Virus record (IMG/VR): IMGVR_UViG_3300026121_000008
Span: 47,943 to 111,942 of that record
DNA length: 64,000 bases
Origin: a virus
Taxonomy: Duplodnaviria; Caudoviricetes
Reading direction: 5' to 3' (one strand)
Part shown: positions 1,577 to 64,000 of the stretch, in pieces
How positions within the stretch are numbered: the first letter of the stretch is position 1
Layout: each line of letters begins with the position of its first letter
The notes under the pieces: model-generated
The model's input: only the letters and a program-made list of their open reading frames with translations
Database searches by the model: none
What the model was told of the DNA's origin: nothing
Program-made: the position numbers and the translations under genes

Positions 1577-1604
1577 TTGCACTTGGTTGCAAAGGAGTTG
1601 CCTC

Positions 1605-1991
1605 ATGGCGTTGGTGCAACCCGTGGACGTCTATACCCCTCCGGCCCATTGCGTGGCCCTGACCCGGTACTTCTTCACGGTCACGGAGCGTCCGGACGCT
1701 GTCCTGTCCGTCCAACTCCACCGGGCGGAACGCATCGTGGACCGGGTGGTGGCCCGTCCGCTCCTCCCCACCCAGCGGGAAGCTCTCATCTGTCTGGTGT
1801 CGGATCTGGAGTCGGTCCCGGCCTTCGAGAAGTCCTTCCTTGTGACCGCGCTCAACAAGGGGATGTTCCAGATCGCGGCGGCAGAGTTCCCGATGTTCTG
1901 CTATCAGGACGGCAAGGTGCAGACCCGACTCTGGGAGAAGAGACGGGCCGAAGCGTTCCTGTTCAGTCGAGGAAAGTTGCTGTTTGACTAG
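1605..1991 (+). CDS. Degenerate phage lysozyme (GH24)-like protein
   Basis: TQREALICL...LVTALNKG...AAAEF...DGKV...RRAEAFLF resembles the C-terminal lobe of P21/T4-type lysozymes; AAGGAG RBS upstream; no catalytic E-x8-D-x5-T visible. Confidence 0.55.
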   Translation: MALVQPVDVYTPPAHCVALTRYFFTVTERPDAVLSVQLHRAERIVDRVVARPLLPTQREALICLVSDLESVPAFEKSFLVTALNKGMFQIAAAEFPMFCYQDGKVQTRLWEKRRAEAFLFSRGKLLFD

Positions 1992-1994
1992 GAC

Positions 1995-2023
1995 TTGACA
2001 AATAGTTTTTCCTCTGTCATACT
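1995..2023 (+). promoter_or_regulatory. sigma70-type promoter
   Basis: TTGACA-17 bp-CATACT upstream of the AAA gene. Confidence 0.7.
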
Positions 2024-2050
2024 GCGCGGGTCCAATGGAGTGCCCGAACC

Positions 2051-61425: not shown

Positions 61426-61436
61426 TATAATACGCT

Positions 61437-61676
61437 ATGCACAAGTGGCTGCTGCTGGGGGTGATCGTGCTCAGTAGTGGCTGTAGTCTCCGGGGGTGGC
61501 ACGTCCAGATCACACCAAAGTGTGCGGACGGGTTGCCCCCGCTTTTGTTCATCGACCAATCCTGCCCTCCTGATGGCGTGTGCGGGTACACCTGCCAGCC
61601 GGGACGATGGAAGAAGAAAGATCCTCCCGATCCTCCCCCGCAAAAACTGATTGCAATTGAGTGCCGAAGATCATAA
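61437..61676 (+). CDS. Small Cys-rich lipoprotein
   Basis: Signal peptide with lipobox LSSGC. Confidence 0.6.
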   Translation: MHKWLLLGVIVLSSGCSLRGWHVQITPKCADGLPPLLFIDQSCPPDGVCGYTCQPGRWKKKDPPDPPPQKLIAIECRRS

Positions 61677-61724
61677 ACTAGACCGCATCCAGTTCCCATC
61701 GTCCACGGTTTGTTCAGAGGCTGT

Positions 61725-63590
61725 ATGCTGAAACTGATTGAGGGCACTGCATCGAAAGCTGACCGGCCCGAGTCGAAAATTACCTTCATTCAGAAGGTGA
61801 TCAAGGAAGAAACGTGGATGGTGATGGCCCAGTCGGCCATCGAACTCGAAGACGAATTTTCAAGTCTGTATTTCACGGCAGGGCAGCAGAATAATTTATT
61901 TCTGATGCCGCCCTTCGAGCCGAATGTTCTCCTGAACCTCGTCCAAACGAACAATATCCTCAACCAGTGCATCGAAGCGATGGAAGTCAACATCGATGGC
62001 ACCGGCCATGAGTTTGTCCCGGCGGAAGAGGGGAAGGACATGGACACGTCGGAGGAGGAGATCGCCAAAGCCTTCTTCGATGAGCCCTACCCCAACATCT
62101 CCATGACCGGCATCCGCCGGAAGCTCCGTCGCCAGATGGAATCGGTGGGCTACGGCTTCATTGAAGTCCTGCGAAATATCGCGGGCGACGTGGTGGGTCT
62201 CCGGTCTGTCGAGACCGCCCATATCCGGATGGTGAAACTCGATACGCCTATCCAAGTGAAGAAGAAGATTGAACGGGATGGCCGGGAAGTCGAACTCACC
62301 CTCTGGGAACGGGAACGCCGCTTTGCCCAGACCGTGGCCCTCAAGCAGTATGTCTACTACCGGGAGTTCGGGACCACCCGTGAGATCCATCGAGAGACCG
62401 GGGAGTGGGAGACGGACGAGAAGAAGGTGCCACCGGAGAAGCGTGGCTCCGAACTTCTGATTCTCGGCATCAACCCGGATGTGACCACCCCCTATTTCCT
62501 CCCAAGGTGGATCAACCAACTCCCCTCCGTCGTGGGCTCTCGTGCAGCGGAGGAGCAGAACCTCCAGTTCCTCGATGCGGGCGGGCTCCCACCCGCTATC
62601 GTCTTCATACAGGGGGGCACCCTCATCAAGGACACGTCCGACCAGCTTCGGATGTACCTGTCGGGCCTGAACAAAAACAAGAATCGAGCCGTGGTCGTTG
62701 AGGTCCAGTCCTCCAGTGGTTCGTTGGATGCTGCTGGCAAGGTGGATGTCAAGGTGGAGCGGTTTGGGTCCGCCCAGTCACAGGATTCGATGTTCACGAA
62801 TTACGACACGGTGACCGAGGAGCATGTGCGCGTTGGCTTCCGTCTGCCACCCCTCTTTCTGGGCAAGGCTGTGGATTACAACTTTGCGACCGCACAAGTG
62901 AGCTATATGGTGGCGGAAGCTCAAGTATTTGGGCCAGAGCGGGTCGAGTTCGATGAACTGATGAACAAGACCATTATCAAAGAACTGGGGCTCAAGACCC
63001 TCAAGTACAAGTCCAAGCCCATTACCTTGAAGGACGTCGCGACCCAGTTGAAGGCTCTTGAACTGTCCATGCCCGTGGCCACCCGTGAATCCTTCCTGAA
63101 AGAGATGAACACTGTAGGCAATATGGCATTGGAGATGGCAGAAGTCCCAGCCCAAGGTGTCGGGGAGATGCACGAGCCGCTGAAGAACACCCCGACCGCT
63201 GATGAGTTGCCGTCCGGGAAGTTGCCCGCCACGATGGAGTCGGTCCAACCCACGCTCAAGCCTGCCCCTCCGGAGGAGAAAGAGACGCCGGAAGAAGCGG
63301 GAGCGATGGAAGAAGCCAAAGCTATGGCCAAAGAGAAGGCCAAGGCCAAGTACCGGAAGACGGCCAGTGACCTTCTGACCCTCGTGCAGGACTATGCGGT
63401 GTACCAGCATCTCCTCCCCTCTGTCGCCCTCAAGCAGGAGATGACCGAGGCCCGCGCCGAGGAGATCAATCAGGACATCCAAGCCCTCGACCCGGAAGAC
63501 GCCCGGACCTTCAACAGCCTGCTGGCCATGGTGGTCTTCGGCTCCGATGACGCCGATCTCTCGTCGGTGATCGCGGCGACTCGTGGCTAA
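61725..63590 (+). CDS. Portal protein (PBSX-like)
   Basis: GYGFIEVLRN..G, YFLPRW, N..F...GG.P, RLPPLFLG...DYNFATA, VF.PER. Confidence 0.85.
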   Translation: MLKLIEGTASKADRPESKITFIQKVIKEETWMVMAQSAIELEDEFSSLYFTAGQQNNLFLMPPFEPNVLLNLVQTNNILNQCIEAMEVNIDGTGHEFVPAEEGKDMDTSEEEIAKAFFDEPYPNISMTGIRRKLRRQMESVGYGFIEVLRNIAGDVVGLRSVETAHIRMVKLDTPIQVKKKIERDGREVELTLWERERRFAQTVALKQYVYYREFGTTREIHRETGEWETDEKKVPPEKRGSELLILGINPDVTTPYFLPRWINQLPSVVGSRAAEEQNLQFLDAGGLPPAIVFIQGGTLIKDTSDQLRMYLSGLNKNKNRAVVVEVQSSSGSLDAAGKVDVKVERFGSAQSQDSMFTNYDTVTEEHVRVGFRLPPLFLGKAVDYNFATAQVSYMVAEAQVFGPERVEFDELMNKTIIKELGLKTLKYKSKPITLKDVATQLKALELSMPVATRESFLKEMNTVGNMALEMAEVPAQGVGEMHEPLKNTPTADELPSGKLPATMESVQPTLKPAPPEEKETPEEAGAMEEAKAMAKEKAKAKYRKTASDLLTLVQDYAVYQHLLPSVALKQEMTEARAEEINQDIQALDPEDARTFNSLLAMVVFGSDDADLSSVIAATRG

Positions 63591-64000
63591 GACGGTTGAT
63601 CTCCGGACGTACCTCCTGTTGGAGCGGGCCTTCGTCCGCCGTCTCCAGCGGACGTGGCGTCTGCAGTCGGCCCCTACCTACGCCAAGATTACCCAAGCCT
63701 GTCTGGACCACAAGTGGGATGAAGCCCGCAGACTCGTCCCCGATCTCGACATGACGGAAGTCGGCACCGAAAACAGAGAGTGGATCACGTACATGCTCCT
63801 CTCCTGTGCGGTGTTCGGAGCCAACACCGTGGCCAAGGGCAAGCCCAGCTTCGTCGGTGTGGGTTCCTTCGACACGTTCCTGAAGCAGGTCACCAACAAC
63901 CTCCTCCAGTACCTCGAATTCGGAGCCACGGCCAAAGTCCAAGAAGATGCGTTGCACTCAATTGCCATGGACGAGGCCCGGACCAAGGCCCTCCCGAAGG
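63583..64000 (+). CDS. Partial CDS after the portal (head morphogenesis-like, runs off the window)
   Basis: Open frame MAKTVDLRTYLLLERAF... overlapping the portal stop; positional inference. Confidence 0.5.
   Translation, partial: MAKTVDLRTYLLLERAFVRRLQRTWRLQSAPTYAKITQACLDHKWDEARRLVPDLDMTEVGTENREWITYMLLSCAVFGANTVAKGKPSFVGVGSFDTFLKQVTNNLLQYLEFGATAKVQEDALHSIAMDEARTKALPK

Follow-up and report, generated by a model that had tools for sequence, protein, structure and literature searches.

The 64,000-nucleotide stretch of soil-phage DNA analysed here (the window, positioned at the end of a virus record of 111,942 bp, about 112 kb) carries a 14-bp palindrome with the core TGCAA-N4-TTGCA about once per 3 kb, both within and between genes. 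These sites are real, are under selection at the DNA level, are evenly spaced and phage-specific, and are conserved over a wide phage group. Which protein binds them and what the binding achieves we infer: the palindromes would be docking sites for a phage-encoded symmetric dimer, most likely that of the protein encoded at 17105-17905, and would serve promoter control together with a genome-wide task, a reading to which we assign a probability of roughly one half.

The consensus KGCAMYYRRKTGCM matches the window exactly at 17 places, where dinucleotide shuffles predict 0.12, and the whole record at 23, against 0.1 expected. The record also contains 11 one-mismatch copies where 3.1 are expected, so that about eight more are judged real and the total in 112 kb amounts to 23-34, that is, tens of copies spread through genes and gaps. 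The count likewise lies far above dinucleotide and order-3 Markov nulls. The preliminary description of this DNA had listed 16 exact matches, all with correct starts, and had missed the one at 36087; of its three near matches, those at 21780 and 32694 have one mismatch each whereas that at 24246 has two. A codon-preserving shuffle, which it had suggested as a check, kept each protein sequence and the codon usage of each gene and gave 0.41 coding copies on average with a maximum of 3 in 1000 shuffles, compared with 15 observed, and thus left the count unexplained.

Intergenic enrichment of the copies is 4-fold; four related genomes taken together contain 42 intergenic and 70 coding ones. The frame xTG-CAN-NNN-NTT-GCx is used by 50 of these 70 coding copies; it encodes (L/V/M)(Q/H)(L/S/P)(I/V)A and sidesteps Cys codons. 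The peptides LHSIA, AIEC, ALNCT and HLIA, quoted earlier for coding copies in the window, were read correctly. The element is 14 bp long, and its flanks carry no information. Its consensus is symmetric with GC doublets 8 nt apart; 18 of 23 copies begin with T, and T...C occupies positions 1/14 in 11 of 23. The half-sites vary independently: complementarity is not maintained at position pairs 1/14 and 5/10, with frequent C/T mismatches at the latter. The asymmetric variant TGCAGTTAATTGCA occurs 9 times forward and 11 times reverse in VH2_2019 and 11 and 8 times in PG28, with genes all on one strand. Independent half-sites and the lack of strand preference argue for a DNA site of a symmetric dimer and not for an RNA hairpin, and the earlier proposal of a dimeric protein agrees with this pattern, which is that expected for double-stranded DNA as the target. 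A hairpin acting in polycistronic transcripts, through processing, stability or translational control near ribosome-binding sites, is extremely unlikely: several copies do fall in the interval from a stop codon to the following ribosome-binding site, and since the genes all lie on one strand every copy is transcribed in the sense direction, but pairing would reach at most 5 bp around a 4-nt loop, the halves show no covariation, no T-run follows the motif, and sites 5' of a promoter -35 would fall only in the tail of the upstream transcript. A sigma-54 promoter (TGGCAC-N5-TTGCW, with GG and GC 10 nt apart and GG nearly invariant) was rejected in view of the T at position 1, the 8-nt distance between the doublets and the symmetry of the motif.

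The sites, listed without strand, often recur at corresponding places in relatives. The first, TGCACTTGGTTGCA at 1578..1591, is intergenic, starts 2 nt past the upstream stop codon and ends just 5' of the ribosome-binding site of a lysozyme-like gene; the same junction is occupied in relative G002. The copy at 5278..5291 lies within a replication-initiator-like gene (4419-5381), 90 nt from its end, and G001 and G002 have one close to the end of this gene too. At +112 of the RuvC gene, the site at 15897..15910 is found at the same position, with 14 of 14 letters unchanged, in G000, G001 and G002, whereas synonymous positions around it have diverged. The site at 18059..18072 occupies the gap 3' of the candidate gene 17105-17905, 27 nt before a PEP-CTERM protein gene, and G001 and G002 also have the candidate binder gene followed by a site. 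A one-mismatch copy, TGCAAGTGATTGCC at 21780..21793, is 62 nt 5' of the large terminase gene, and another, GGCATTCAAGTGCA at 32694..32707, is close to the end of a small gene. Further copies fall within a 635-aa gene (26123..26136), at +49 of gene 36038-36445 (TGCAACCAGTTGCC, 36087..36100), 2 nt past a stop codon and 74 nt 5' of a collagen-like tail-fibre gene (38354..38367), and in a small ORF, 45153-45446 (45278..45291). The site at 50348..50361 lies at +1136 of a pyruvate-phosphate-dikinase-like gene, where G002 has a one-mismatch copy at the same position, and that at 53746..53759 lies at +285 of a phosphatase-like gene (peptide LCTQLQ), where the aligned position is kept in every one of the four related genomes, the 49%-GC relative G004 among them. 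One copy falls within the DNA polymerase gene (58029..58042), and one lies in gene 58440-59414, 36 nt from its end (59365..59378), at a position shared with G001. The site at 61652..61665 is 60 nt 5' of the portal gene and is kept 51-62 nt 5' of that gene in four of four related genomes; the last, at 63953..63966, is at +370 of a gene running off the record end and has the same position in G002.

Such coincidence is frequent in orthologous genes, as for the RuvC, phosphatase and portal sites, and 34 of 55 ordered genome pairs have a site at the aligned position as well. Synonymous third positions, whose conservation in relatives had been put forward as a further check, are 75% identical inside the sites and 49% in the flanks. 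The coefficient of variation of the gaps between sites is 0.40-0.60 in 10 of 14 genomes, compared with about 0.95 for random placement; spacing was not significantly even in RcZahn, RcTiptonus and HJ05. The stretch is present as assembled contigs in 19 rhizosphere DNA runs, with no RNA run listed as containing it. The strains in four of these runs are almost identical, with differences at 31 places over 20 kb; none of these falls inside the 98 bp of sites, where only 0.15 are expected, so that this comparison is uninformative.

About one third of the copies lie at a fixed distance 5' of sigma-70-type promoters. The sites at 9943, 20696, 24246 and 30887, described earlier as abutting promoters, were found beside or over promoter elements. 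The site at 9943..9956 occupies the final codons of a primase-like gene and ends 1 nt 5' of the -35 of the promoter TTGACA-17-TATCCT (9958-9986), which heads the operon containing both candidate binders (17105-17905 and 12255-12722); the junction is shared with G001 (one mismatch) and G002. The site at 30887..30900 overlaps the stop codon of gene 30009-30887 and lies 3 nt 5' of a TTGACA -35, and the two-mismatch copy TGCAAGTAAATGCA at 24246..24259 is 6 nt 5' of the -35 of promoter 24266-24295 (TTGACA-18-TAAGAT). The site at 20696..20709 is placed over the transcription start, directly 3' of the -10 of TTGACG-18-TAGAGT (20666-20695). The gaps to the -35 in the window are 1-3 nt at exact sites, and one site lies over a transcription start; another adjoins a -35 at genome position 27479. 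In G004, VH2, PG28 and L338C, 8-11 of 21-29 TTGACRAA promoters carry an upstream site, its 12-bp core mostly ending 9-10 nt (range 7-14) 5' of the -35. The distance from site to -35 varies with lineage, at 1-3 nt here and 8-9 nt elsewhere, and this argues against one rigid contact with RNA polymerase. Sites thus occur in three settings, adjoining a -35, in the neighbourhood of a promoter or remote from any; most sites, many of them deep in genes, are far from any promoter, and plain promoter control is therefore not the whole story.

When 12 kb of the window were compared with cultured phages by Megablast, no match resulted, and relatives were reached via proteins only; a Pfam search of ten small ORFs returned nothing. 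At least nine cultured phage lineages have TGCAA-N4-TTGCA, with 17-52 copies in each genome. The motif-bearing group is a wide set of 80-120 kb siphophages whose hosts include Stenotrophomonas, Vibrio, Rhodobacter, Rhizobium, Pseudomonas, Aeromonas and Agrobacterium and range in GC from 45% to 67%, a breadth that favours a reader made by the phages themselves, and the motif is absent from four terminase-related phages. Extrachromosomal prophage persistence is reported for the DLP3/DLP5 branch (PMC7326821) and the VHS1 branch (PMC3148565). In an Acidobacteriaceae assembly, the putative host, 21 of 28 matches lie in a 48-kb phage part, and the remaining 4.65 Mb hold seven, a chance-like number; the suggested search of the host chromosome thus found the motif only at chance level outside the phage part. 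The motif is very unlikely to be host-derived or host-aimed, whether as a host-wide palindrome (HIP1- or uptake-like), a host regulator box (LacI/PurR-like GCAA-N4-TTGC) or a restriction-modification target. It is true that the LacI-family pattern in its general form, TGnAAnCGnTTnCA, fits, and that the form found in Agrobacterium phage JP1, GCAAACGTTTGC, corresponds to the core of the E. coli PurR box. However, the same core recurs in phages of hosts from Acidobacteria-like bacteria to all the genera named above, the putative host genome is at chance level, and a restriction target should be avoided, yet the motif is 200-fold enriched.

All motif-bearing phages share RecA, an SF2 helicase and a Cas4-family exonuclease, usually with two resolvases, near the candidate gene 17105-17905. 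The sites could be points of enzyme action, either as places of nicking or cutting or as a palindromic Chi-like self-mark for the helicase, exonuclease and RecA, which would keep the breakdown of phage DNA in check and provide starting points for recombination-dependent replication at intervals of a few kb. Even spacing fits the coverage that this would require, a palindrome works from both directions, the enzyme module is common to the whole group, and T5-type phages of similar size carry site-specific nicks. Nevertheless we regard this explanation as quite improbable: known Chi and nick sites are asymmetric and read on one strand, a fixed distance to promoters is not expected, and no dedicated nickase was recognised. 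A Chi-type hotspot in the strict sense, an asymmetric word with orientation bias, was rejected for a 14-bp palindrome without such bias.

Two proteins had been named as candidate binders at the outset, and they are still the two best, with the product of 17105-17905 as the leading candidate and that of 12255-12722 as the runner-up. The former (17105..17905, + strand) is a 266-aa protein of no Pfam family (no match at E <= 0.01) that belongs to a family of more than 800 proteins, all labelled hypothetical. The protein turned up in each of the 15 motif-bearing genomes that were searched, always just 3' of RecA/resolvase/exonuclease/RuvC genes, and in none of the four terminase-related motif-less phages, bar one 12-bit partial match (phiXF1). 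Other core genes (RecA, helicases, exonuclease, primase, polymerase) are also absent from motif-negative phages, so co-occurrence cannot single out this gene; among core genes that have not been given an enzymatic or structural function, however, it alone has a DNA-binding-type fold. The gene is preceded by a site at 60-200 nt in 9 of 14 genomes, whereas the window and its two closest relatives have no site upstream of it. The protein conserves RKAxYLIxIY and LGW(T/S)K segments in an alignment of 15 lineages, which are too few independent lineages to conclude on covariation between recognition helix and motif centre.

The predicted structure of this protein (pLDDT 78.6) shows a moderate resemblance to the ParB/KorB DNA-binding domain. 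Fold alignment gave Z 8.0 to ParB-parS (116 residues, rmsd 4.0), 7.1 to Spo0J, 6.9 to KorB-operator (106/114 residues), 6.3 to KorB, 4.9 to SopB, 4.7 to VirB and 4.4 to P1 ParB, in an all-helical protein for which Z below about 13 can reflect a common helical arrangement. Seven ParB-family DNA-binding domains were among the top 29 of 48,161 chains (model residues about 40-165), and the top match was an unrelated Rubisco assembly factor (Z 9.4). Foldseek found no match to the model at E <= 0.001, with E-values of 0.45-1.4. A homodimer model scored 0.70 against 0.00 for the best control, a mark that was attained by 20 of 30 solved same-chain pairs, compared with 1 of 23 single chains; its runs agree in at least 48% of contacts, and partner pLDDT is at least 69. 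At the sequence level, PF17762 (HTH_ParB) and PF11300 (DUF3102) gave no match at E <= 10, a PDB sequence search with the profile of the protein returned noise only, and the ESM Atlas gave sub-threshold leads to 'ParB HTH' and DUF3102 clusters (scores 0.82-0.83). The model has no CTP-binding ParB/Srx-type domain before residue 28. A canonical ParB as reader was rejected, as PF02195 (ParB_N) has no match in the 112-kb genome at E <= 0.1 in a search that was positive in 11 of 14 control genomes; DLP3 and DLP5 have separate ParB_N proteins (PMC7326821), and SM1 carries one as well. No ParA-type (IncC-type) or KorA-type partner was found.

The runner-up (12255..12722, + strand) is a 155-aa protein with a MerR-type winged helix-turn-helix at residues 78-136, whose dimer might bind the palindromes and tether or compact the DNA as RacA does on ram. 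This assignment is rather doubtful. The protein matches MerR HTH in Pfam (E 4.7e-6) and the PHROG 'transcriptional regulator' (5.8e-12), a PDB search with its profile reaches CarA, CarH and RacA through their DNA-binding domains (E 0.005-0.06, RacA weakly at 0.06), and its operon is the one whose promoter follows site 9943. It is syntenic between helicase and RecA genes in DLP5, Vibrio VH2_2019 and Ares1, with weak syntenic matches in SM1, L338C and HJ05. Against it, no homologue was detected in motif-bearing RcZahn, where the syntenic slot holds 110-aa and 82-aa proteins without an HTH match, or in motif-bearing RcTiptonus and JP1, and the match in TM16 is marginal and off-synteny. Because a small fast-evolving protein could escape detection, these absences are not decisive.

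In the preferred reading, a dimer of the 17105-17905 protein would recognise the 14-mer TGCAATCAATTGCA, each half reading one TGCAA half-site, presumably through a central ParB/KorB-like helix-turn-helix and without an N-terminal CTP-binding domain. The array seems to serve two purposes, with one set of sites at promoters and a dispersed remainder. The third of the sites at a fixed distance 5' of the -35 or over a transcription start suggests that the protein probably controls promoters, which would be of the host sigma-70 type. The remaining sites appear to be kept wherever affordable, such that no genome stretch is more than a few kb from one, and this suggests a genome-wide task of silencing, compacting or segregating, as for KorB on RK2. 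It is possible, though we think it unlikely, that the array is mainly a genome-wide 'self' scaffold and not a set of operators, with a CTPase-less ParB-like dimer loading on phage DNA every 2-3 kb. Such a scaffold may mark the DNA for, or shield it from, the helicase, exonuclease and RecA of the phage, or may compact the genome for plasmid-like segregation; if so, it would represent a phage-wide kinetochore or insulation system extending from Acidobacteria-associated phages to those of Vibrio and Rhizobium.

None of the motif 14-mers or 12-mers occurred in a relevant paper of the searchable literature, and the papers on DLP3, OPA17 and Rhodobacter phages leave the repeat unmentioned. Dispersed protein-binding repeats are known in few phages and plasmids; here, a TGCAA half-site is kept, at similar density and with mostly even spacing, across a very wide radiation of 80-120 kb siphophages that includes phages studied against Stenotrophomonas, Pseudomonas, Vibrio and Aeromonas. 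Retention restricts the codons available and, in some genes, apparently the amino acids as well, so that the phages must depend on the function, and since cultured members exist (DLP5, SM1, VHS1-like phages, RcZahn), the question is testable at once. An answer would bear on the switching of gene programmes in large phages and on how some of them are maintained as unstable extrachromosomal prophages, a point of relevance when phages are chosen for therapy.

Several known systems resemble this array in part. The P1 C1 operators, the conserved inverted repeats of phiC31 and the 17-bp palindrome of Cluster O mycobacteriophages are, in each case, a protein-binding repeat present in many copies across a large phage genome, and the P1 prophage is a plasmid (compare DLP5 and VHS1). 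These repeats are mostly intergenic, their sequences and proteins differ from those here, and we know of no report of even spacing or of codon-choice retention in coding sequence for them. Cluster A stoperators (L5 gp71, Bxb1 gp69) are similar in having about 20-35 copies of a 13-14-bp site in gaps and genes, bound by one phage protein that also controls an early promoter. The stoperator likeness drawn in the preliminary description nevertheless fails on orientation, because stoperators are asymmetric and oriented with transcription while the sites here are symmetric and without orientation bias; in addition, the candidates here are unrelated to the L5-type repressor, and no integrase or immunity cassette was seen in this DNA. 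RacA/ram and Noc/NBS of Bacillus subtilis also employ 14-bp palindromes in 25-70 dispersed copies (25 for ram) that mark DNA for tethering or positioning, Noc being a ParB-family protein and RacA sharing the MerR-type winged helix of the 12255-12722 protein. They differ in being chromosomal and tied to sporulation or division, with regional rather than even sites, and the similarity to RacA is weak. KorB is the ParB-family global repressor and partition protein of the IncP plasmid RK2. The 17105-17905 protein is unlike KorB in having neither the ParB N-terminal CTP-binding domain nor a sequence-level ParB/KorB match, and the present system in having no IncC/KorA-type partner and in residing on a phage with 20-50 far more evenly placed sites. 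On the other hand, the 12 O_B operators of RK2 are 13-bp palindromes, compared with 14 bp here, and recur every few kb over the whole replicon, some directly 5' of a -35, others within about 200 bp of promoters and others distant or intragenic, and the candidate model aligns with the DNA-binding domain of KorB on its operator.

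The palindrome TGCAATCAATTGCA, a 14-mer with the core TGCAA-N4-TTGCA, occurs far more often than expected. The window holds 17 copies of KGCAMYYRRKTGCM against 0.12 expected; the 16 starts listed in the preliminary description stood, and the copy at 36087 had been overlooked. In the whole 111,942-bp genome we counted 23 exact copies (0.1 expected) and 11 one-mismatch copies (3.1 expected), which gives about 31 real sites, and inclusion of the one-mismatch sites filled apparent holes in the first 48 kb. Because the flanks were uninformative, the element is exactly 14 bp long. A codon-preserving shuffle, proposed in the same description as a check, did not explain the frequency: when synonymous codons were permuted within each gene, so that every protein and the per-gene codon usage were preserved, 1000 shuffles gave a mean of 0.41 and a maximum of 3 coding copies, against 15 observed.

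The IMG/VR virus record, of which the window spans bases 47943-111942, is rated complete and has a GC content of ~59% and ~133 genes, every one of which was placed on the plus strand by a codon-bias gene caller. Replication and recombination genes recognized in it encode DnaB helicase, primase, SF2 helicase, RecA, two resolvases, a Cas4-like exonuclease, and DNA polymerase A, and structural and packaging genes encode the large terminase, portal, and collagen-like tail fibres. The sole tRNA of the window is tRNA-Cys (GCA) at 29260-29333. Since the final gene (63583-63999) is truncated by the record end and G001, a relative with direct terminal repeats, starts at the equivalent of genome position ~20.3 kb, the record is probably permuted or arbitrarily opened and does not display the true ends. 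About 1.9 kb without a gene call (59857-61725), between the operon at 58440-59857 and the portal gene, is flanked by palindrome copies at 59365 and 61652. A block at 49212-54213, kept in every related phage, encodes a pyruvate-phosphate-dikinase-like protein (PPDK_N and mobile domain) and two dual-specificity-phosphatase-like proteins; as the DNA of the cultured phage DLP3 is resistant to 15 restriction enzymes (PMC7326821), this block may be part of a DNA-modification pathway.

Terminase relatives (59-83% identity) carry 28, 31, 16, 30, and 13 exact copies, and many sites lie at matching places in orthologous genes, such as +112 in the RuvC gene and +298 in gene g27. In four genomes, with GC contents as low as 49%, a site occupies +285 of the phosphatase-like gene, and in four the portal gene has a site 51-62 nt before it; the primase and tape-measure genes carry sites at their ends. 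Conservation at synonymous positions, also suggested earlier as a check, was evident: among codons for the same amino acid, third positions agreed in 132 of 176 comparisons within sites and in 834 of 1688 in flanks (Fisher P ~1e-10, somewhat inflated by the counting of ordered pairs).

Among the phages reached by protein searches, every cultured phage with the shared replication and recombination module carries the same core. The four central bases change from lineage to lineage around a constant outer TGCAA/TTGCA, as in DLP5 of Stenotrophomonas (32 copies, TGCAATYRATTGCA), VH2_2019 and PG28 of Vibrio (~33 each, TGCARTTAAYTGCA), Ares1 of Vibrio (28, with one strong half-site, TTAATTGCA), RcZahn and RcTiptonus of Rhodobacter (~18-20, TGCAATYAAYTGCA, and 30, TGCAATCGATTGCA), RHph_TM16 and L338C of Rhizobium (~17, TGCAAYAWATTGCA, and 52, GCAACNNGTTGC), SM1 of Pseudomonas (35, GCAARCGYTTGC), HJ05 of Aeromonas (19, TGCAACYGGTTGCA), and JP1 of Agrobacterium (35, GCAAACGTTTGC). 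Matches are at the chance level (0-2) in terminase-related phages of Maribacter, Gordonia, Streptomyces, and Xanthomonas. The company of the recombination module also allows a reading in which the sites are directed to an enzyme, either as nicks or as a Chi-like self-mark for that adjacent module, which we consider unlikely.

The reading that we prefer, binding sites for a dimeric protein, draws on how the copies vary. In this genome, changes in one half are independent of those in the other: of the pairs at positions 1/14, 7 are T..A, 11 T..C, 4 G..A, and 1 G..C, and at positions 5/10 C is often paired with T. With such uncorrelated halves an RNA hairpin would often be limited to a 3-bp stem, and we rejected it. 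In two Vibrio phages the majority of sites are asymmetric (TGCAGTTAATTGCA) and face both ways (9:11 and 11:8), with all genes on a single strand. Independent halves and absent orientation preference are the behaviour of a double-stranded DNA site for a symmetric dimer, so that the dimeric-protein site proposed in the preliminary description is upheld as a prediction from sequence.

Non-coding DNA, 7.5-10% of the sequence, contains 42 of the 112 exact copies counted across this genome and three relatives; 20 of these 42 start within a few nucleotides of an upstream stop codon, and a sigma-70-type -35 or a ribosome-binding site follows downstream. Among the 70 coding copies, 50 share a single Cys-codon-avoiding frame, (L/V/M)(Q/H)(L/S/P)(I/V)A. 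In each of the four IMG/VR genomes, sites were spaced much more regularly than by chance (gap CV 0.46-0.57 vs ~0.95 simulated, P <= 0.0002), and the CV was 0.40-0.48 in DLP5, VH2_2019, and PG28 and 0.59-0.64 in SM1, L338C, and JP1; spacing was not significantly regular in RcZahn, RcTiptonus, and HJ05. In large capsid-cargo polyprotein genes, the palindrome often stands at the very start of the gene or module, where it encodes (L/V/R)Q(L/S)(I/V)A immediately ahead of an ILKWD..NQPR junction peptide (genome positions 4799 and 11684, upstream of the window; 102747-107568 in G001; 36825-41878 in the relative G002).

An extended -35 element, TTGACRAA(C), is common to these phages and looks like an early-promoter signature common to phages of unrelated hosts. 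It is written TTGACAAAC (TTGACGAAC in G004, the 49%-GC relative), lies at 9958, 17028, 24266, and 30904 in the window and also in relatives, and has 21-29 coding-strand occurrences in this phage, its relatives, the Vibrio phages, and L338C. In G004, VH2_2019, PG28, and L338C, a site precedes 8-11 of the 21-29 promoters, with mostly 9-10 nt (range 7-14) from the end of the 12-bp core to the -35 and the site centre near -51. The four copies earlier said to abut promoters indeed do so: at 9943 and 30887 the 14-mer ends 1-3 nt from the -35, at the degenerate site 24246 the distance is 6 nt, and the site at 20696 overlies the transcription start. A portion of the array is thus coupled to host-type promoters; the majority of copies are distant from any promoter.

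Core genes of all motif-bearing genomes encode head protease, capsid, portal, terminase, AAA ATPase, DnaB, primase, SF2 helicase, RecA, Cas4-like exonuclease, polymerase A, and the 266-aa protein at 17105-17905 (in JP1 by profile). The last is the only one without an assigned role, its gene always follows the RuvC gene, and its family has >800 members, every one hypothetical and without a Pfam domain. In an AlphaFold model built with 50 sequences (pLDDT 78.6), residues ~40-165 align with the DNA-bound structures of ParB-family DNA-binding domains, with Z values of 8.0 (ParB-parS), 7.1 (Spo0J), 6.9 (KorB-operator), 6.3 (KorB), 4.9 (SopB), 4.7 (VirB), and 4.4 (P1 ParB), which are modest for helical proteins, an unrelated helical protein ranking first. 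Because of these modest values and because the ParB_N, HTH_ParB, and DUF3102 sequence profiles did not match the protein, we describe it as resembling ParB/KorB in its fold but not in its sequence, and as lacking the CTP-binding domain. Its modelled symmetric dimer scored 0.70 vs 0.00 for the best control (contact agreement at least 48% and partner pLDDT at least 69 in the dimer runs); of 30 solved same-chain pairs 20 attain that mark, and of 23 single chains 1 does. A site lies 60-200 nt upstream of the homologous gene in 9 of 14 genomes, this genome not being among them. The DLP5 homologue is DLP05_067. In SM1, the homologue has 449 aa and the next gene encodes a 236-aa protein with the ParB N-terminal domain only (locus L089, 3377-5510); the two look like halves of ParB in neighbouring genes. 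We favour the 17105-17905 protein as the putative binder. The runner-up is the 155-aa MerR-type protein at 12255-12722, which matches Pfam and PHROG regulator families, with weak PDB profile matches to CarA, CarH, and RacA; 11 of the 15 motif-bearing genomes have a recognisable homologue (DLP05_060 in DLP5), and the syntenic slot of RcZahn lacks one.

A homologue of the 17105-17905 protein is also borne by a 374-kb contig (C20) of an Acidobacteriaceae assembly, G006, of which we examined positions 1-80000 (loci L137-L140). The first 48-50 kb are syntenic phage DNA of 54-56% GC, from the helicase to the polymerase gene, after which GC jumps directly to 61-67%; the junction marks either a partial prophage that has integrated or a chimeric assembly, and a tRNA-Ala lies ~7 kb beyond it. 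The 4.7-Mb assembly contains TGCAA-N4-TTGCA 28 times: 21 matches fall within the phage part, all TGCAATYRRTTGCA, and the other 7 have random centres, with ~4.5 expected by chance. This check of a putative host chromosome, also proposed earlier, shows that the motif is owned by the phage and not by the host. The contig points to Acidobacteria as hosts of this phage lineage, consistent with the C-terminal PEP-CTERM sorting signal of the protein at 18099-18851, which points to an exosortase-bearing host, and with the rhizosphere origin of all 19 sequencing runs containing this sequence.

The palindrome is a phage-specific, symmetric, DNA-level site, evenly spread and under selection. We predict that a phage-encoded homodimer binds it and, at promoter-adjacent copies, would modulate sigma-70 transcription. 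The even spread, kept despite a codon and amino-acid cost, would mean that the protein is needed everywhere along the DNA, and full coverage might serve silencing, compaction, segregation, or protection. A role in plasmid-like maintenance or in silencing is plausible because prophages of two branches of the group, DLP3/DLP5 (PMC7326821) and VHS1 (PMC3148565), are maintained outside the chromosome. The motif strings do not occur in relevant papers of the searchable literature, and the text-searchable genome papers on these phages do not mention the repeat. Dispersed operator-like repeats are already known as a kind of feature, and what is new here is how deeply the sites are conserved and how regularly they are spaced, together with an uncharacterised family of putative readers. 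The closest described logic is that of plasmid RK2, on which KorB has 12 operators.
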